From NCBI GenBank assembly GCA_964513645.1, contig CAZENF010000002.1:8090-72089 (forward strand): 64,000 bases of DNA. The letters are read 5' to 3'. The position numbers were made by a program, and so were the translations under genes. Below are positions 12,815 to 54,752 of this stretch, piece by piece. The DNA comes from an uncultured Candidatus Saccharibacteria bacterium (GTDB lineage Bacteria; Patescibacteriota; Minisyncoccia; 2-02-FULL-40-12; GWA2-44-9). Each line of letters opens with the position of its first letter. Positions within the stretch are counted from its first letter, which is position 1. The notes below the pieces were generated by a model. That model made no database searches. It was given only the letters and a program-made list of their open reading frames with translations, and had not been told where the DNA came from.

Positions 12815-13546
12815 CTATAATAATTCTCTTGTTATACCCTTCATCCATCCGGCTATTTGTCTTGCCAACATAGAACTTGATGAAACTCTTACTCTTAAGA
12901 GCCCAAATTTACCTCCCTTAAAACTGTGGATATTCTTCTTTTTATTAGCAGTTCTCTGAAAATATACATATCTAAAATTAATCTCCGGAAAACCTGTTAC
13001 TTCTGACCAGTATTCTATATTTTCGAGAGTTACTCTTTTTTGATCTTCAGAAGGTATGTTTTTCTTGTGTCTGTGGTCTTTTATGAAAAGGTCGAATTTA
13101 ATTTCTTTATCTTCAACGTTTCCTATCTCCTGAAGCCATTTTAAGAATATTTTTATCAGATAAGGATCAGTGTTTGTAAAATTAACCCCTTTGCGAAGCT
13201 GTCCTCCGTCATTCAATAATAATCTTTCATGCCAGCATAACATGATGCCCATTAACCAAAGTTCCTTTTTAGAAATTTTTCTTATTTCTTTAGCAGACGA
13301 GAGTTTTATATCCTCTATTATCTTTAAAGTTCTAACTTTTCTCTTTTCTGAATTACTTCGGGCAATGGCTATCATTTTGTTCTTTAATTTTTCTGCTTGA
13401 GGTCCGGTAAGTTTTGTGTTTTTTAACCAAAAAGCTATCGTCGACTTTGGAATGTGCATTGCGTTCTCGATCTCCGAATAAGAATACCCGCGTTTCCGCA
13501 TATCGATGACGATATTTTTTTTATAATTTTCTAAATATTGGCTCAT
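12815..13546 (-). CDS. HTH-domain protein, possibly a free-standing LAGLIDADG-like homing endonuclease
   Basis: The N-terminus has a resolvase-type HTH (SYSEIENAMHIPKSTIAFWLK). The segment YLIKIFLKWLQEIGNV resembles the conserved FLDKLVDEIGVGYV region of I-CreI-type enzymes. The surroundings are AT-rich. Confidence 0.35.
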   Translation of the reverse strand: MSQYLENYKKNIVIDMRKRGYSYSEIENAMHIPKSTIAFWLKNTKLTGPQAEKLKNKMIAIARSNSEKRKVRTLKIIEDIKLSSAKEIRKISKKELWLMGIMLCWHERLLLNDGGQLRKGVNFTNTDPYLIKIFLKWLQEIGNVEDKEIKFDLFIKDHRHKKNIPSEDQKRVTLENIEYWSEVTGFPEINFRYVYFQRTANKKKNIHSFKGGKFGLLRVRVSSSSMLARQIAGWMKGITRELL

Positions 13547-13777
13547 GTTCCTAAAATGTAGATTAAAATCTTTATTCGGGACAAAAATTTGATCTAAAAT
13601 ATCTATTTGACCTTCTGAAATTTATGTTATGAAATAGTATTAGACATGGTATATCATAACTAATTAAATAGTATCACTGTACAATATTTATTCAAAGTAG
13701 CTTATACACAGTCTATATTACTTAATTTTAGACTTATTTAGACCAGATATCAGATATTCTCAAATAAAAACCGGTAT

Positions 13778-14221
13778 TTAACCGGTATTTCTGACCCTGC
13801 ATTCAACGCTCAAGCATGGCTCATATCCATCTTTCACACCATAATCTGTTAAATATGTAGCATATGCTATCGGCAATTGTTCCAATAGGAGCAGAGATTT
13901 TGATCTTATATCCTCCATTGAATTAAATTCCGCCGGATCTACTCCACCTTTCCACCCATCTTCGATGAGCACATAGACCCAATTATGGGCTGTTCCGCTC
14001 CCCTGCCTGACGCTTACCTTGAGACAAGGATACAAAGCTTTTACCGCCTTTTTGACCAACCGGCATCTTATTTTCTTAAAGTCCTTGTAGCTTACTTTAT
14101 TGAAATCTATTGGCATTGCCGTTTTATGCGCCAGCTTATATCCGGGGTCGTTTTGTATCGCCTTCAGCATTAATTCAAAATCGGCTTTATCAACCTGATT
14201 AAGTCCGTTCGGACCACCCAT
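13778..14221 (-). CDS. Hypothetical protein
   Basis: A 147-aa ORF with no recognisable motif, followed by a CCGGT-taaat-ACCGG hairpin plus T-run terminator at 13757-13775. Confidence 0.4.
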   Translation of the reverse strand: MGGPNGLNQVDKADFELMLKAIQNDPGYKLAHKTAMPIDFNKVSYKDFKKIRCRLVKKAVKALYPCLKVSVRQGSGTAHNWVYVLIEDGWKGGVDPAEFNSMEDIRSKSLLLLEQLPIAYATYLTDYGVKDGYEPCLSVECRVRNTG

Positions 14222-15236: not shown

Positions 15237-16001
15237 TTAGCCTGTTAATTTAATTACCTCTTCCGCTAATCGCCGATATTCATCGGCGGCTTTTGAATTG
15301 GGACTGAACTGGATTATCGGCTTACCGTAACTTGGAGCTTCAGCCAGATCGATCGTTCTTGAGATAGATGTTTCGAACACTCTTCCAGTAAAATTCTTAT
15401 GGACCTCGTTCATTACATGGCGGTTCAATTGATTCCTCTTATCATACATTGTAAGCAATACCCCAAGTACTTGCAAATCCGGGTTGAGGCCCTGCTTTAC
15501 CAGATCAATAGCATAAACCAGTTGGCTAAGACCTTCTAAAGCATAGTACTCACACTGGACCGGTATCAGAACATGATCCGCAGCAGTTAAAGCATTTATC
15601 GTCAAAAGTCCGAGCGAGGGCGGACAGTCAATCAGAATATAGTCGTAATTCATCCTTAAAGAACCCAGGGCCTTCTTGAGGCGGTATTCCCTCTCCCCCA
15701 TCGATACAAGCTCAACCGTCGCTCCGGCAAGCGCTTGGGTCGCCGGAAGAACATCAAAACCGAAGATGGAGGTTTTCTTTATCATTGTCAGGGGGTTCTG
15801 GTCGTTAACGATCGCATGATAGACATTATCGCTCTCTAACGCTAAATTAATGCCCAAACCGCCGGTAGCGTTGGCCTGGGAGTCCATATCTACCAAAAGG
15901 ACGTATTTGCCCAAGGCAGCCAAATAAGCTCCGAGGTTAATGGCCGTGGTGGTTTTACCGACTCCGCCCTTGGCATTACAGATTGTGAGTATTCTTGCCA
16001 T
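15237..16001 (-). CDS. parA: Chromosome partitioning ATPase ParA/Soj
   Basis: The deviant Walker A KGGVGKTT is present. Confidence 0.9.
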   Translation of the reverse strand: MARILTICNAKGGVGKTTTAINLGAYLAALGKYVLLVDMDSQANATGGLGINLALESDNVYHAIVNDQNPLTMIKKTSIFGFDVLPATQALAGATVELVSMGEREYRLKKALGSLRMNYDYILIDCPPSLGLLTINALTAADHVLIPVQCEYYALEGLSQLVYAIDLVKQGLNPDLQVLGVLLTMYDKRNQLNRHVMNEVHKNFTGRVFETSISRTIDLAEAPSYGKPIIQFSPNSKAADEYRRLAEEVIKLTG

Positions 16002-16199
16002 TTATAACTTGCTGGCCGCTCCGCTAATCGCCTGGGGCGATTAAAGCGGTAAGCTCTTGGCCAATATCCAGCCCGAATCGCAACGATTCGTTGCGGGCGG
16101 GTTTCGTTAGAAGCTCCGTTCCTCCTTCACCATAGTTATACTATGGCTCAGTCCGGTACTCGCTTCTGCCTCAATCTTGGCCAAGCCAGCTGCGTTCTA
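16002..16199. repeat. MITE-like repeat element, copy A (198 bp) with imperfect terminal inverted repeats
   Basis: The left end ttataacttgctggccgct abuts the parA ATG. The right end tgcctcaatcttggccaagccagctgcgttctaa is 39/40 identical to the end of copy B at 24818-24973. Internal perfect hairpins include cgcaacg-att-cgttgcg and ccatagt-tata-actatgg. Confidence 0.55.
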
Positions 16200-16329
16200 A
16201 GTATTGATAAGTAAGTATTTTAATTTTATACTCTCCGCCCGAACTTTTCAAATCAAATAAGACTTATTTAAGAAATAAGTTCTTTATTTGAAAAAATCCG
16301 GAAAAGTGATAGAATTACAGGATATTGGG

Positions 16330-16414
16330 GCCCGAGTGGCGGAATTGGCATACGCGCACGACTCAAAATCGTGTGTCCTTACGGACTTGTGGGTTCAACT
16401 CCCACCTCGGGCAC
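16330..16414 (+). tRNA. tRNA-Leu (anticodon CAA)
   Basis: The acceptor gcccgag/ctcgggc, a long variable arm, and the anticodon loop ctCAAaa give a cloverleaf very close to E. coli tRNA-Leu. Confidence 0.85.
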
Positions 16415-19755: not shown

Positions 19756-20121
19756 TTATTTTAGGTTGGCCTTGAGAAGCTTCAAAATTTCCTTTTCAAC
19801 GGCTTCTTTTTTTTGTTCATTAGATCTTTCATCTATTTCAGAAAGATATAAAGCGAATTTCAACTCATATATTTCCCGATGCCATTTCTTATCAAGATTA
19901 GGACATGTAAAACTATCATGTAAAACTTCGACTTTAGCAAGTGACTCGATAAAGCTCCGAGGACCAAGAATATTTCGTTCAACGACCATCCGGGTATTAC
20001 AAATACCGCATTTCATAGAATCTTTAACCCCGGGGTTAGGATAGGCACGACCAAAGTTACCATACCAACTTATTTTAAAACGATTTTGGGAAATCCTCGT
20101 TGGCACTAATGGATGCGGCAA
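19756..20121 (-). CDS. Hypothetical Cys-containing protein, start uncertain
   Basis: A 121-aa ORF from TTG. The frame stays open for a further 43 codons upstream and includes an AAGGAGG motif at about 20246-20252, but no ATG/GTG/TTG occurs there. Confidence 0.4.
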   Translation of the reverse strand: MPHPLVPTRISQNRFKISWYGNFGRAYPNPGVKDSMKCGICNTRMVVERNILGPRSFIESLAKVEVLHDSFTCPNLDKKWHREIYELKFALYLSEIDERSNEQKKEAVEKEILKLLKANLK

Positions 20122-20294
20122 CCCATGTCTTTTTTCAAATTCTTCTTTTTCTTTCGGATCTGTTATATGTTTCGCGCCTAGATCCTTTGCTATCTTTTTC
20201 GGGTCGAGTTTGTATTTTATTGTCCTCTTTTTCTTCTTAACCTGTATTCCTCCTTCAAAGAACCTTCAATATACTATCAAAATAAATTTGAATG

Positions 20295-20515
20295 GCAAGA
20301 TAGTTAATAATTTCGCAGACCATCTTTTTTCGAGGTTAAGCAAAAATCAAATTAACCGATAATTTATGTTTTATTCCACAAATTTGAGGGGAGTTCCTCC
20401 GCCTATTAGGCGGATAACAGGACGACGAGGCTCAAATTTGTTAACTAAATTTAGGTTAATTTGATTTTTGTACGAAGATAAAAAGTAGGTCGAGAAAATT
20501 ATTAACTATCTTGCT
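20295..20515. repeat. Long imperfect palindrome of 221 bp with nested perfect inverted repeats
   Basis: Outer IR: gcaagatagttaataattt (20295-20313) against 20497-20515. Middle IR: caaaaatcaaattaacc against ggttaatttgatttttg. Central hairpin: tccgcc-tatta-ggcgga near 20406. The right arm overlaps the tsaC stop codon. Confidence 0.6.
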
Positions 20516-21155
20516 ATAGACGCAGTAACTTGAGAAACTCCTCCGGTTTTGAGGGACCGACACGTGAGATCTTGGGTTTATCGCCGGTCAGGTCAAGGAT
20601 GGCCGAAGGTTCTGATTTGGGAAGAATGCCGACATCAAGAACAAGATCCGGCTGCCGGGAAAGTTTGCCGGAAAAAGAATCAATGATTTTGTGTATATTC
20701 CCTGTTCCTTCTTCACCCGAAATATTGGCCGAAGTGGAGACTATCGGATGACCGAACAATTTGAGAAGCTGGTCGACCAATGGATAGTCGGCAATCCTCA
20801 AACCGACGGTTTTGTGGCCTGAAGTAAGGATATCAGGAACAATGTCTTTTTTGTTTAAAACGACCGTAACTTTGCCCGGCCAGACTTTATGGAGAATATC
20901 TTCATCGCCCTTTTTAACATAGGCCAACTCCTTGGCCCATTTGATACTCCTGATGATCATCGGCAAAGGTTTGGAAAGCTGACGTTCCTTAATATCAAAA
21001 ACCTTTCTGACCGCTTTTTCATCCAGAGCATTGCCTCCGACGCCGTAAATAGTGTCCGTCGGATATACTATTACTCCTCCGGCCTCGAGAACTCTTACCG
21101 CTTCTTCGATAGCCGTAGAATAATCTTTGTTCAAATCCACCTGAATTATTTTCAC
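20514..21155 (-). CDS. tsaC: L-threonylcarbamoyladenylate synthase (YrdC/Sua5 family)
   Basis: The YrdC motifs VYPTDTIYGVGGNA are present. Confidence 0.8.
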   Translation of the reverse strand: MKIIQVDLNKDYSTAIEEAVRVLEAGGVIVYPTDTIYGVGGNALDEKAVRKVFDIKERQLSKPLPMIIRSIKWAKELAYVKKGDEDILHKVWPGKVTVVLNKKDIVPDILTSGHKTVGLRIADYPLVDQLLKLFGHPIVSTSANISGEEGTGNIHKIIDSFSGKLSRQPDLVLDVGILPKSEPSAILDLTGDKPKISRVGPSKPEEFLKLLRL

Positions 21156-24186: not shown

Positions 24187-24253
24187 CTCCGAATATCAAA
24201 ATCCTAAATACTAAACAATACCGAATATATAATTTCAAAATTCAAAATGTTTT

Positions 24254-24305
24254 GAATTTAAATATTGGGATTTTGTATTTGTTTAGAATTTAAATATTGG
24301 GATTT
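24254..24305. repeat. Direct repeat, 2 x gaatttaaatattgggattt with a 32-bp period
   Basis: Direct reading. It lies between the nusB stop and the rnc start. Confidence 0.6.
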
Positions 24306-24316
24306 AGAAATTAATT

Positions 24317-24817
24317 TCATTCCTTATTACTAACCCCTTCTTTCTCTCCTGCTAGTTCGCCTGAATCTTTTGCGGGAGGAGCATCATCTTTACCCGGTTC
24401 CCCTATTTCACGATAAACAGTACCTAAAACACCGTTAACAAATTTACCCGAAGACTCACCGCCGAACGATTTAGCAAGTTCTATTGCTTCATTGATCGCA
24501 ACCTTAGGCGGGACTTCTTCCCTTTTGCCGAAAAGAAGTTCATACAGACCGAGACGAAGAACATTTCTGTCGACAACCGCAACTTGATTCAAAGGCCATT
24601 GAGGGGCGGCCTTTTCAATTATCTTATCGATAGCGCCGACGTGACTGATCGTCCCTTCGATCAGCTGATTAATGAATGAGGTATCTTCCATTCCGGAAGC
24701 GAATTCTTTGATATTCCTTTCAGTGATACCGGGAAGTTCTTCCATTTTTCTGCCCCGAAAATCCCACTCATAGAGGGTTTGCATCGCAACACTTCTTGAT
24801 AAATGCCTACTAGCCAT
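24317..24817 (-). CDS. nusB: Transcription antitermination factor NusB with a C-terminal extension
   Basis: A NusB-like N-terminus ([14 protein letters not shown]) and the [10 protein letters not shown] motif. Confidence 0.85.
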
Positions 24818-24973
24818 TTATAACTTGCTGGCCGCTCTCGTTTTAAGATTTTGCAAGGACGCTCTTGACCAATATTTTCGTTAAAAGTTCCGCTTGCTCG
24901 TCATCATATTGCAATATGTTTCCTCGCAATGCTCACCTTTGCCTCAATCTTGGTCAAGCCAGCTGCGTTCTAA
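24818..24973. repeat. MITE-like repeat element, copy B (156 bp)
   Basis: It shares the 19-nt left end (abutting the nusB ATG) and the 40-nt right end with copy A. The middle has diverged and carries a degenerate cttgaccaatatt motif. Confidence 0.55.
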
Positions 24974-39221: not shown

Positions 39222-39305
39222 TTTTGTCTATAAGCGTAGCGAATAGCTACAAAAATGAGCACCTCGCCGAAGCCATAGCGAAGGCGGGTAGCCCAAATAT
39301 TATCT

Positions 39306-50900: not shown

Positions 50901-52161
50901 TATAAGCAGTGTTCTCAACGGTAGTAAATTCGACATAGCCGTCGCCGGAAGCGATAGTCTGGGTAGATGAGGCGCCTGCATCCCAGACATTATTTGTACC
51001 TCCGGTTTTGGTCAAAGTATTCCCGGTCACCGTTAAGGCGGTTACGTTCTGCCAAGTCGCATTGGACGGCGCACTCGTTGCCAGAGCACAGTATTGGGAA
51101 TTGGGACAAGGATTAGAAGCACCTCCGCACCATCTCAAATTAGTAGAAGCTCCCGAATCAACCGTGCAAGGACCATTTGAATAAGCTCCGGCTCCATTAG
51201 ATTGGCAGGTAATATCAGCTACCGGCGCTGGAACCAAAAGATTAAAATTAGTCTGAAAATTTACCCAGCCGGAAGATAAAGTTGTTAGGCCATTATAGAG
51301 ATAACCGGAAATATCATTATCGATGACCGGGGTTGTGTAGGGCAACTGGAAACGGACGGTAAAAACCGTAGTTCTGCTGTTTCCTGAAACAGAAGTAGTA
51401 CAAGCATCGAGATGGATGTTGGCGTCGCCATAACCTGGCTGAACCGCCGCATGGCCGCCTCCGGTACAGGCCCGGTAATCCTGATAGCCGTTCCAAGCAT
51501 CTAAATAATACCAGGTCAAATATCCCCTGTATAAAGGAGCGTTCTCACCTTGAAGATTTATAAGAACATATTCATGAGTGATATTCGCGCTCCCGGTGGA
51601 ATCGGAGCCGGTAATCGTAATATTATACTGGGTCGTATTGTCGGTCGTAACCAAAGGAGAACTGATGGTAACATTGTCTACGGTTGGGGGAGGGGCGGCG
51701 TATGCGGCCTGGGCATAATAAGCTGCCTGCCCATAATAAGTCGACTGGGCGTAGTAGGATGATTGGGAATAGCCATACGTTCCTTGGGCATAAGGATATG
51801 TTGCTTCGGCATAAGGATATGTTCCTTGGGCATAAGGATATGTTGCTTCGGCATAAGGATATGCTGCTTCGGCATAAGTTATAATACAAGATTCAAAAGG
51901 CCCGCAAGCATAAGCAGGGGCCGCACATCCGCCGCACGAATAAGTCGTCCCATAACAAGGGTCGTCGTTTCTTGTAGCACAAGAAGTACACACGTCAGAA
52001 CTATAAACCGGGTTGTCTCCGCAAGGAGGATCGTTATTACCATGACATGTGTATCTTAAAAGACACACCATTGACGAAGCGTCTTTAACGCTTAAAGACA
52101 AGCTCAGAAATATAACAGCCACAGGAACTAAGACCAAAAAAACAGCATACCGATGTTTCAT
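47971..52161 (-). CDS. Giant secreted protein of 1396 aa with a Cys-rich N-domain, Tyr-rich tandem repeats, a duplicated module and six FG-GAP/VCBS-like repeats
   Basis: N-terminal transmembrane/signal segment. A Cys-rich block DDPCYGTTYSCGGCAAPAYACGPFESC. YPYAEAT x5 and YYAQ-type repeats. A CQSNGAGAxSNGPCxVxSGxSTNLRWCG module occurs twice. Repeats DFNGDGLTDLAIF, DFTGDGKTDIGEWR, DYTGDGKADLAVWR, DYTGDGKTDMAVWRP and DYTGDGKADLAVYRP follow. Confidence 0.7.
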   Translation of the reverse strand: MKHRYAVFLVLVPVAVIFLSLSLSVKDASSMVCLLRYTCHGNNDPPCGDNPVYSSDVCTSCATRNDDPCYGTTYSCGGCAAPAYACGPFESCIITYAEAAYPYAEATYPYAQGTYPYAEATYPYAQGTYGYSQSSYYAQSTYYGQAAYYAQAAYAAPPPTVDNVTISSPLVTTDNTTQYNITITGSDSTGSANITHEYVLINLQGENAPLYRGYLTWYYLDAWNGYQDYRACTGGGHAAVQPGYGDANIHLDACTTSVSGNSRTTVFTVRFQLPYTTPVIDNDISGYLYNGLTTLSSGWVNFQTNFNLLVPAPVADITCQSNGAGAYSNGPCTVDSGASTNLRWCGGASNPCPNSQYCALATSAPSNATWQNVTALTVTGNTLTKTGGTNNVWDAGASSTQTIASGDGYVEFTTVENTAYKMGGFSSSDTTPSYVEMKYALYAAGDGHVYIIENAAFQNGGAAVGTYVAGDIFRVAIQKGVVKYFKNGMLLFTSPNLPTYPLLFDSSFYSIGATLSNVHIGTGLVSPTAANVQWQNILPSANITVGASSITKTGGVAAWDTGASSIQTISSGDGYVEFVVGDTTKYKIAGLGNGDSNQSYTDIDYGIYPNVDGNLYIFEGGSLKAGPLAAYTAGDLLRVAVEFGTVKYYQNGNLLYTSTVPPTYPLGLDTSLYDPGTMILSAKLYNGQTSGTYSTGPITTPSKTFYLTCVDPGGNSTDTAITINANAATADATCQSNGAGAFSNGPCSVNSGTSTNLRWCGTTGVNCSSVDSCTISPGPASYSLQFGVAGGRPESAEQIVDSTTLNLKAAIGSPLSGDFNGDGLTDLAIFNSATSGWTIDYSPPNGVTDVTPIPFTLAYSPYYDVPTMADFTGDGKTDIGEWRSGSGPWYVLTSESNYTSWYTVLVPPSPYISWGLGATPTFDLAVPGDYTGDGKADLAVWRSGAGQPDTGYWYVLNSDDNNKTYFTRAWGTTGDVPVQADYTGDGKTDMAVWRPSSTTWWVLTSNSNWTAGLSYTLALATATDIPVPADYTGDGKADLAVYRPSTGDWFIYTSESNYTASYNLKLGIPGDVPVPGYYHSKGKAEVAVWRPSNQKWYFINGPIVNTSLATANLIANTTYTLSCNGSAGIATDQVTVNVAVPTPSVSNMTVTVNNGYYCSAGVHATVSGIYTDPGSLNAINYQAMIDNDLVSDPNVASASMNPEWESGTVPVAITSGSTFSSSTSNCPVNNSTNVTLNPTDTRPQTTCQMVWNTTYTAWGRVQNSSGVWSPWVKMSTYINGVNPPASQASWTTPVHAFPQTAFTYSPASPVSGSPVTFTDSTVFAPSSSGKTWSWNFGTGVPTPAGTGTQGPYSVVFTGNGSFPVSLTATDNAGSCTYQNNLYIGQKLPQWREVAPY

Positions 52162-53411: not shown

Positions 53412-54752
53412 TCAAGGTATCGGCGGCCTCTGGCCTCTAAGAATGGAGTCGACGAGGTAGACGAAACCTTTGCCGATAAGGACGATTATAAACCCGATAA
53501 GAGCCCAGAAGAGGATATTCTTGGCCTTTTGGATCTCACCAGGGTTACCTCTCGAAAAGACGAACCTTATGCCGGCGTATAGGATAAGGATGACTATTAA
53601 TGAACCTGCGATGTTTAATATCCAATTGGAGATGAGGGTTATTAGTCCAAAGATATCATAAGGCTGGCCGTAGAGAGGATTTACTATCCTCCAGGGGATG
53701 CTGACGGGTTGGCCGGGGTTGATAGGGCCCGGACCATTATTACAAGCACTGCTACCTGTCTGGCAAATGGTAACATTGGCGGACTGGGTTATGGTATAGT
53801 CGGGCCACAAAGCCCCCCCGTCACATTCTATCTTTGCGTAGTAATATTTAGTCCCGGTCGATTGGGGAGGATAAAAAGTAAAATTAGCACTTTCGTTTAA
53901 GTTCACTAATTGTTGAGTATTATCGAAATTAGCTACCCGCCGATAAATGAGAGGAACACCATTATCGTCAAAAATTGACCACAAAACATCTGTTGGCGGA
54001 TTACCAAAGGTGCTGTTGCACTTACCCCAGTCTATCAGTAAGGCCGGATAGACGTTTATACCGACTGTGGCATTTAGATTATCTCCGGAATTAGCTTGTT
54101 TTGGTTGAATATCAAATGTGACATCGACTCCAGGAATGGCTTGTGGGTTGGGAGTTGAGGTGGGGGGAATAGGCGTTGGGGTGGTATATGTTGCTTGAGC
54201 ATAATAGGCTGATTGGGCATAGTAGGATGATTGAGAATAGCCCGGGCCATATGATGCTTGGGCATAGTAGGCAGCTTGGGCATAGTAGGCAGCTTGGGCA
54301 TAGTAGGCAGCTTGGGCATAGTAAGTCGATTGACCGTAGTATGCGGACTGGCCATAATAGGATGACTGACCGTAGTATGTTGATTGGGCATAGTAAGATG
54401 CCTGACTATAGTAAGACGCTTGAGCATAGTAGCTTGACTCTGAATAATACGCCGCCTCTGAATACGCGGCAACGCAACTATAAAAAGGTCCACAGGATCT
54501 TCCGGCTGAACATCCACCGCAGGTATAGGTTGCACCGCCACAGGGATCATCTGTTCTTTGAACGCATGTCCCGCTGCAAGCTGACATGACCGGACAATCA
54601 CCACAAAAACCGGTTCCAGGCCCGCAGTTAGGAGAACATTGGTAGCCAGTAATGCAGGAGGTCTGGGCAGAAACATACCCGCTAAAATACAAAAACGCCA
54701 GGATTACCAAGATAAAGGTTAAGATCGTTGTGAAAAGATATTTTTGTCTCAT
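53412..54752 (-). CDS. Secreted Cys-rich / Tyr-repeat protein with a C-terminal two-helix hairpin resembling VirB2/TrbC-type pilins
   Basis: The N-terminal domain is paralogous to the 1396-aa protein (DDPCGGATYTCGGCSAGRSCGPFYSC). It carries (S/A)YYAQ x~14 repeats. The C-terminus GLITLISNWILNIAGSLIVILILYAGIRFVFSRGNPGEIQKAKNILFWALIGFIIVLIG has two transmembrane helices separated by a short charged loop. Confidence 0.55.
   Translation of the reverse strand: MRQKYLFTTILTFILVILAFLYFSGYVSAQTSCITGYQCSPNCGPGTGFCGDCPVMSACSGTCVQRTDDPCGGATYTCGGCSAGRSCGPFYSCVAAYSEAAYYSESSYYAQASYYSQASYYAQSTYYGQSSYYGQSAYYGQSTYYAQAAYYAQAAYYAQAAYYAQASYGPGYSQSSYYAQSAYYAQATYTTPTPIPPTSTPNPQAIPGVDVTFDIQPKQANSGDNLNATVGINVYPALLIDWGKCNSTFGNPPTDVLWSIFDDNGVPLIYRRVANFDNTQQLVNLNESANFTFYPPQSTGTKYYYAKIECDGGALWPDYTITQSANVTICQTGSSACNNGPGPINPGQPVSIPWRIVNPLYGQPYDIFGLITLISNWILNIAGSLIVILILYAGIRFVFSRGNPGEIQKAKNILFWALIGFIIVLIGKGFVYLVDSILRGQRPPIP

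Follow-up and report, generated by a model that had tools for sequence, protein, structure and literature searches.

The 64-kb window (by which we mean the whole stretch of DNA that was analysed) carries two homologous copies of a small intergenic element, one in front of the partitioning gene parA and the other in the spacer between rpmF (ribosomal protein L32) and nusB. In both cases the sense strand of the element is the minus strand. The NusB protein of the window is 79-95% identical to those of Yanofskybacteria MAGs, and the window itself looks Yanofskybacteria-like. The features relevant to the two copies (with helices numbered P1 to P5 and scores taken from the covariance models, CM, described below) are the following:

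15237-16001, minus strand: parA (Pfam AAA_31 and ParA families), start codon adjoining copy A
16002-16200, minus strand: element copy A in the parA 5' leader (CM 136.8 bits, E 1e-33), 3' end adjoining the ATG
16002-16016, minus strand: copy A, 3' strands of P2 (GCCAGC) and P1 (GUUAUAA), the final 15 nt ahead of the parA AUG
16021-16049, minus strand: copy A, variable hairpin P5, whose stem sequence differs among copies with pairing kept
16056-16064, minus strand: copy A, 3' strand of P3, UUGGCCAAG (covariation)
16068-16101, minus strand: copy A, extra 34-nt hairpin within the P3 extension, present in no other copy
16102-16108, minus strand: copy A, near-invariant loop strand AACGAAA (alignments)
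16109-16167, minus strand: copy A, P4 arm with base helix, GA/GA-flanked internal loops and apical hairpin (helices 5-8 covary)
16168-16172, minus strand: copy A, near-invariant loop strand GAGGC (alignments)
16173-16184, minus strand: copy A, 5' strand of P3, UUGGCCAAG, with the 3-bp extension AUU (covariation)
16185-16200, minus strand: copy A, 5' strands of P1 (UUAGAAC) and P2 (GCUGGC) (pairing and compensatory changes)
16223-16251, minus strand: promoter-like TTGAAA-17-TAAAAT (consensus match and conservation at the empty parA site of a relative)
24317-24817, minus strand: nusB (Pfam NusB), start codon adjoining copy B
24818-24973, minus strand: element copy B in the rpmF-nusB spacer (CM 164.6 bits), 3' end adjoining the nusB ATG
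24818-24832, minus strand: copy B, 3' strands of P2 and P1, ending at the nusB AUG
24837-24857, minus strand: copy B, P5 hairpin with weak pairing, its subtype shared with the copy at locus L017
24883-24940, minus strand: copy B, P4 arm
24958-24973, minus strand: copy B, 5' strands of P1 and P2
24997-25221, minus strand: rpmF (Pfam Ribosomal_L32p), with 23 nt between its stop codon and the 5' end of copy B

The 19-mer TTATAACTTGCTGGCCGCT (given for the plus strand), which forms the 3' end of the element, occurs exactly twice in the window (16002-16020 and 24818-24836), each time touching a CAT (the minus-strand ATG), and two matches to it were obtained in 0 of 100 shuffles. The opposite ends (16167-16200 and 24940-24973) are identical at 33 of 34 positions (chance expectation 0, again from 0/100 shuffles), with the similarity reaching 42 nt at 90% (repeat family D13). 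An earlier, sequence-only reading had described two elements sharing both ends before parA and nusB, with an identical 19-nt terminus at each ATG and three perfect hairpins inside copy A, all of which are present. Some of its measures had to be amended: the near-identity of the right ends stands (one mismatch) over 34 nt as written and not over 40 nt, and copy A starts at 16002 as described and ends at 16200 instead of 16199, giving 199 nt (versus 156 nt for copy B). The middles, considered by that reading to have diverged, are homologous (77% column identity over the whole alignment), with a 34-nt hairpin inserted in copy A relative to copy B and helix substitutions that remain paired. What it took for a terminal inverted repeat does consist of complementary ends; by nature, these are the closing helix (P1/P2) of an RNA-type fold.

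A third copy was not found in the window by two covariance models, even with their filters switched off. A 28-nt similarity (repeat family D10) in the 392-nt spacer at 20122-20513, upstream of the ORF at 19756-20121, does not belong to the family; a long nested inverted repeat seen there (20292-20517; 38-nt arms 82% complementary, inner 24-nt arms 88%) is no member either. Periodic repeats of 18 nt and 21 nt (families D1 and D4; 51682-51878 and 54168-54467) are situated inside large minus-strand ORFs and probably encode repetitive protein segments.

The order upstream of parA is TTGAAA-17-TAAAAT, 22 nt, copy A and the parA ATG. The only site returned by consensus promoter scanning precedes copy A, and its sequence recurs at the empty site of a relative; we regard TTGAAA-17-TAAAAT as a candidate parA promoter. 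Because copy A is placed between this putative promoter and the ATG, it would constitute a 5' leader. Thus, the 'promoter position' assigned to both copies by the sequence-only reading was not upheld, as copy A lies between the parA promoter-like site and the ATG, and copy B between rpmF and nusB. Both are co-oriented with the downstream gene in leader or spacer position, and therefore should be transcribed as its leader. An internal promoter was considered and rejected: the TTGRCC of P3 could pass for a -35 box on either strand, and a matching -10 position is not conserved across subtypes.

Two further observations concern the neighbourhood of copy A. A tRNA-Leu(CAA) gene (16330-16414, plus strand) diverges from it, with a promoter-like TTGAAA-16-TAGAAT upstream and a terminator-like hairpin downstream, and at locus L017 a divergent tRNA-like sequence lies 12 nt from the 5' end of the copy. 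Two ORFs at 12815-14221 (minus strand), between parB and a convergent relA-like gene, encode 243 aa (with an N-terminal HTH that weakly matches Pfam HTH_SB, below the cut-off) and 147 aa (no Pfam match); in the syntenic relative L037 relA comes immediately after parB, and the two ORFs may be a separate mobile insertion.

Outside the window, further copies reveal that the two belong to a repeat family, as the sequence-only reading had proposed. A 23-mer from the 5' part retrieved seven true copies in five Patescibacteria MAGs (including three Yanofskybacteria and one labelled Wildermuthbacteria, whose contig was possibly misassigned by MAG binning); an eighth match, in a Saccharibacteria coding region, was discarded as a chance match. 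An independent pattern from the 3' part gave 27 loci in groundwater metagenomes, and searches with covariance models, trained first on 21 and later on 27 distinct copies, brought the family to 29 non-redundant members (no fewer than 28 of them distinct). The more divergent members (L009 3877-4041, three in L025, L021 3574-3758 and L036 8137-8313) have wholly different P1, P2 and P3 sequences and retain the pairing (e.g., UGAAAUAGUUGCGUG with CACGCAACUAUUUCA). All copies are intergenic and span 120-201 nt; no long ORF can be read in the element, and its GC content (0.43-0.54, versus a window average of approx. 0.40-0.44) is found within AT-rich flanks. As the loci were selected for containing the element, their copy density is biased; the figures from unbiased sequence are two copies in the 64-kb window and one in the neighbourhoods around the nusB genes of relatives.

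Screening the whole window against Rfam 15 at the gathering thresholds yielded two tRNAs and no match to the element, and when the two copies and some divergent ones were scanned permissively, nothing relevant came up. A phage or plasmid origin was likewise without a match in two pattern scans of viral contigs and in blastn searches of phage and plasmid collections. No description was encountered in the literature, and the covariance-model searches produced no decayed fragments. This element of Yanofskybacteria-like Patescibacteria, approx. 155-200 nt in length, is previously undescribed and absent from Rfam.

Folding of the aligned copies (RNAalifold on a MAFFT alignment) gave a Y-shaped structure with a three-way junction, in which P1 (AAC with GUU) and P2 (GCUGGC with GCCAGC) are the closing helices, P3 (UUGRCCAAG with UUGGYCAAG) continues as the long P4 arm, and P5 is a hairpin free to vary in sequence while keeping its pairing. 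Compensatory changes were present in 16 of the 40 pairs of this alignment, and in the 27-sequence alignment double changes supported 33 of 42 pairs, with 98% of the cells paired (a combination reached by 0/500 shuffles; slid controls attained 30-39%). The copies of the window themselves illustrate the covariation, as P3 contains G-C in copy A and A-U in copy B. An alignment made with a covariance model is biased towards the structure of that model; the MAFFT result and a 3-bp extension of P3 that the model did not contain agree with it. This extension, proposed by eye, is an independent check because its columns were unpaired in the model used to build the alignment: it proved 100% paired, and two of its three pairs (27-193 and 29-157) show five double changes each (AU to UA, UA to CG).

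The unpaired positions are nearly invariant (GAGGC opposite AACGAA, and GA opposite GA beside the apical hairpin), and the periphery is dispensable or expandable, as seen from the 34-nt insert of copy A, a 45-nt insert in the L017 copy and a shortened P4 (L025 2893-3012). The fold is strand-specific: in all of the 21 copies compared, the sense strand folded at lower energy than its complement (mean -61.8 versus -49.1 kcal/mol), and the consensus helices hold 52 G-U pairs against three A-C. Copy A is predicted to fold at -85.8 kcal/mol (z -6.2) and copy B at -45 kcal/mol (z -3.8; opposite strand z -1.1). The folding of both copies had been suggested earlier as a check, and the family carries a strongly covarying single-strand fold. 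Differences between orthologous copies were seen in a single pair (L008 and L030), where every stem substitution stays paired; such conservation is compatible with a host-selected and with a selfish function alike. Readings of the loops as a boxA-like GCUUUUAAC or as kink-turns were dropped as resemblances only.

The placement of the element follows a strict rule. Among the 28 distinct copies that could be scored (one further copy being cut by a contig end), 27 have their 3' end at most 6 nt from an ORF boundary. In 16 copies a sense ATG is found at -1 to +3 nt of the 3' end, and the genes behind them are varied (parA, nusB, RF1, mreB, priA, nusG, rplK, ruvA, fusA, metK, rpmF, a sugar transferase and two unknowns). 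In another 11 the stop codon of a convergent ORF is located at -6 to +1, several times inside the terminal TTATAA of the element, and such stop-abutting copies are intercalated between the stop codon and an intrinsic terminator, as at L003 and L008. Two copies lie 18-26 nt from a start codon, one of them (L021 3769-3934) being at the same time the sense member of a head-to-head pair. Three such pairs, each combining unlike subtypes, fill intra-operon spacers among the 29 copies. The order at L025, for instance, is rpsG, a reversed copy, a forward copy, fusA, a reversed and a forward copy and the next gene, and L001 has a single reversed copy between rpsG and fusA. The distance from the 5' end to the next gene is looser (usually 3-200 nt). 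The rule of orientation and distance is real and only partly explained. As a separate observation, the release factors encoded at L005 (336-1076) and L003 (2419-3141) are only approx. 240-247 aa long, and the L005 protein matches Pfam PCRF from profile position 100, hence its N-terminal domain is missing.

Shine-Dalgarno-like sites precede only 6 of the 57 genes of the window, and -10-like hexamers peak 6-8 nt before the ATGs (200 spacer-preceded genes from the window and related loci), which together suggest that leaderless or near-leaderless mRNAs are frequent and that leaderless or Shine-Dalgarno-independent initiation may be widespread. With six such sites in 57 genes, the absence of a Shine-Dalgarno site was rejected as a special feature of the element.

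Comparisons with syntenic loci expose a patchy distribution. Locus L009 reads secE-element-nusG-element-rplK; in the window, which has a NusG 88% identical to that of L009, secE and nusG are separated by 1 nt and nusG and rplK by an unrelated 84-nt spacer, and neither gap holds an element. The rpmF-nusB spacer measures 11-14 nt in L036, L041 and L044 (NusB 85-90% identical), and in L038, L042/L043 (95% identical) and L046 it is occupied by unrelated AT-rich palindromic or tandem repeats; L036 has a divergent family member upstream of rpmF. The parA site of L037 is empty, with TTGAAA-17-TAAAAT followed by the ATG 12 nt later. Given these empty syntenic sites in close relatives, gains and losses of the element occur on the timescale at which species diverge. 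The insertion polymorphism that the sequence-only reading had advised looking for is thus found: relatives with 85-95% identity in NusB or NusG have no element at the orthologous sites. Both halves of its alternative (a mobile or palindromic element, or a conserved structured leader) received support, from the family and its insertion polymorphism and from the covarying fold. The word 'mobile' refers here solely to presence and absence. With every boundary offset considered for 20 copies, we detected no consistent flanking repeat of at least 4 nt, no duplication in comparisons of empty with filled sites, no solo ends, ends split around an ORF or larger parent element in the 450 kb scanned, and no transposase-like gene linked to the element in the annotated loci.

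Other sequences occupy some of the same spacers. The 84-nt nusG-rplK spacer of the window (39222-39305) contains hairpins and stands exactly where L009 has its element; it may represent another kind of leader or another repeat. The rnc-nusB spacer of the window (24248-24311) is filled with AT-rich tandem or palindromic repeats (GGGATTT and ATAAAGTT motifs), and repeats of the same kind fill the rpmF-nusB spacer of relatives (L042 1-120, L046 7790-7905, L038 9885-10000). These repeats form a class of their own, the second in these genomes to colonise spacers and one unrelated to the element.

We reason that the element is probably selfish, MITE-like and mobilised in trans, with its RNA fold under selection, and that in the window it came to reside in the parA leader and the rpmF-nusB spacer. 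It would spread selfishly, moved by an enzyme acting in trans, and its fold would be kept because the RNA (or a single strand) is needed for the spread or for harmless residence. Within a leader, P1/P2 would hold the 15 nt just ahead of the AUG. We favour a scenario in which cutting or trimming of the leader at the base of P1 would restore a near-leaderless mRNA, in a lineage where Shine-Dalgarno sites are mostly missing. Such a cut would explain why sense copies occur only directly before AUGs and only antisense copies behind stops, since cleavage of a sense copy behind a stop codon would remove the terminator; we infer that it is the most economical account of the distance and orientation rules. 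Leader processing alone does not explain the antisense copies that abut stop codons. It is quite unlikely that the fold is in itself the processing signal (self-cleaving, or mimicking the substrate of a host RNase), through which the element excises at the RNA level and the leaderless mRNA is regenerated; a bacterial 'punctuation' of this kind would allow a selfish element to live before essential genes where translation does not rely on Shine-Dalgarno sites. The element may also be the RNA partner of an undiscovered RNA-dependent mobility system.

These inferences have to be weighed against other accounts of the same data. To ordinary promoter or leader conservation in two paralogous or co-regulated operons, or to chance, we give practically no weight: the two copies do share their orientation and their place before start codons, but the shuffles reproduced neither end, dozens of copies exist elsewhere, before unrelated genes and behind stop codons, and relatives lack the element at the orthologous sites. 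The data leave no room for an ordinary conserved leader, a riboswitch-type regulon or chance, nor for the opposing scenario named by the sequence-only reading (no further copies, and ends explained by the conservation of paralogous leaders). A cis-regulatory RNA module of benefit to the host (for instance one that senses a global signal or binds a regulatory protein), recruited to many housekeeping genes to control the translation or stability of the adjacent one, seems unlikely. The downstream genes are functionally unrelated and are found without the element in close relatives, 11 of the 28 copies point at a convergent gene, which leaves them nothing downstream to regulate, and no Rfam family matches, even though the near-invariant unpaired nucleotides and the complex junction resemble aptamers or protein-binding RNAs, the nucleotides right before the AUG are covered by P1/P2, the stem changes between the L008 and L030 orthologues all keep pairing, and decayed fragments were not found.

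The fold might instead act as single-stranded DNA, as a recombination or transposition substrate for an HUH enzyme or a tyrosine recombinase (modelled on REP/REPIN, the ends of IS200/IS605 and integron attC sites). Several traits would suit such a role: the fold is specific to one strand and DNA hairpins tolerate G-T pairs, the ends carry AAC...GTT like attC R boxes, the copies sit at ORF boundaries and include three head-to-head pairs, target-site duplications are missing as in IS200/IS605, and several P5 loops are C(GAA)G, a loop that is stable in DNA too. Known single-stranded DNA substrates need short hairpins only, whereas here all 160 nt are structured with conserved internal loops; moreover, the element is longer than attC sites, no conserved 4-5 nt target is present 5' of it, and the flanks are core genes in conserved synteny, with neither cassette arrays nor an integrase in the annotated loci. 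We consequently deem this role improbable. Still less can be said for a multi-copy gene for a trans-acting RNA (the scaffold or guide of an RNA-guided or ribonucleoprotein system, to which the neighbours would be irrelevant), a reading that is very unlikely. It draws on the precedent of HEARO, which proved to be the IscB omega RNA, on the mobile and highly structured nature of an RNA with variable and conserved modules, on the intact copies in contexts without a downstream gene, and on the AT-rich, -10-like boxes upstream of most copies. Yet the element is not followed by an intrinsic terminator, the annotated loci show no conserved partner gene, and head-to-head pairs leave only 10-16 nt for promoters. 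Compared with the flanks of other copies, a copy's own flanks are neither more complementary nor more identical to its interior, and the idea of a guide RNA was rejected on this ground. The selfish, trans-mobilised element with a selected RNA fold is hence the explanation that we retain.

To our knowledge, the tiny and tightly packed genomes of Patescibacteria have almost no described non-coding RNAs or small mobile elements. The element presented here has as much covariation support as accepted RNA classes, and sits with single-nucleotide precision at the start codons of essential genes (parA, nusB, nusG, rplK, fusA, mreB). If it is merely a selfish repeat, it offers a useful strain marker and shows how streamlined genomes tolerate insertions before core genes; if its RNA is active (in processing, regulation or mobility), it represents a new RNA class and a route into Shine-Dalgarno-free translation initiation in an uncultured phylum. 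In either case, the covariance model is directly usable for a census of complete genomes.

Among known systems, the label 'MITE-like' given by the sequence-only reading applies in part (criteria from PMC10969869). The element is non-coding, intergenic, below 500 bp and multi-copy (two copies in the window, 29 non-redundant in total), it is polymorphic in insertion (empty orthologous sites in relatives), and its termini fall in the 4-30 bp range of terminal inverted repeats, UUAGAAC..GCUGGC pairing with GCCAGC..GUUAUAA and covarying as P1/P2. Flanking direct repeats (20 copies), AT-richness (GC 0.43-0.54) and, in the 450 kb scanned, a parent IS were not found, and target duplications are known to fade with age (PMC10969869). 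ERIC/IRU sequences of Enterobacteriaceae are similar in being intergenic imperfect palindromes of 100-200 nt, present in either orientation and in strain-variable copy number (PMC10969869); they are transcribed with flanking genes, as the element should be, and their copies at gene 3' ends alter mRNA decay (PMC10969869). The element differs from them in its host phylum, in the lack of any sequence or Rfam match, in having a three-way junction with invariant internal loops where ERIC is one long hairpin, and in the strict placement of its 3' end at ORF boundaries, a rule not described for ERIC. Correia repeats of Neisseria (CREE/NEMIS) also are small, directly upstream of genes, co-transcribed and strain-variable, and their terminal inverted repeats form an RNA helix that is cut by RNase III (PMC10969869). 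They possess TA target duplications, internal promoters and an IHF site, whereas in the element we found neither a duplication nor a conserved internal promoter.

The REP/BIME/REPIN sequences resemble the element in being intergenic, often just past stop codons in operons, in forming inverted pairs and in probably being moved in trans (partly from PMC2817692). REPs, however, are simple hairpins of 20-40 nt and REPINs symmetric doublets, whereas the element is approx. 160 nt long, asymmetric and strand-specific, with only three head-to-head pairs among the 29 copies. Integron attC sites are structure-conserved, sequence-variable and strand-specific folds between ORFs with AAC...GTT ends. The element shares with them (e.g., the Vibrio VCRs) the conserved structure with variable sequence, the stop-to-start placement and these ends, yet it is longer (155-201 nt), has a conserved interior and is gained or lost alone and not as an ORF plus element; from the attC definition (RYYYAAC/GTTRRRY, 57-141 bp, cassette arrays near intI) only AAC/GTT fit, as no integrase was found in the annotated loci and the copies are isolated or in inverted pairs among core genes. 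The pattern expected of riboswitches and other cis-regulatory leaders (related genes, sense orientation, conservation between orthologues) was not observed, and the 5' flanks share no fixed tetramer or pentamer such as the 4-5 nt target expected beside the left end of an IS200/IS605-type non-autonomous element or omega RNA carrier. With HEARO/omega RNA the element has in common a mobile, multi-copy and extensively covarying RNA structure first noticed as a repeat, and it departs from it in having no adjacent IscB/TnpB-like ORF, no Rfam match and no guide-like relation to its flanks. Overall, the element behaves like the small intergenic repeats ERIC, Correia, BOX and REP (PMC10969869), with a fold that is far more elaborate and better conserved.
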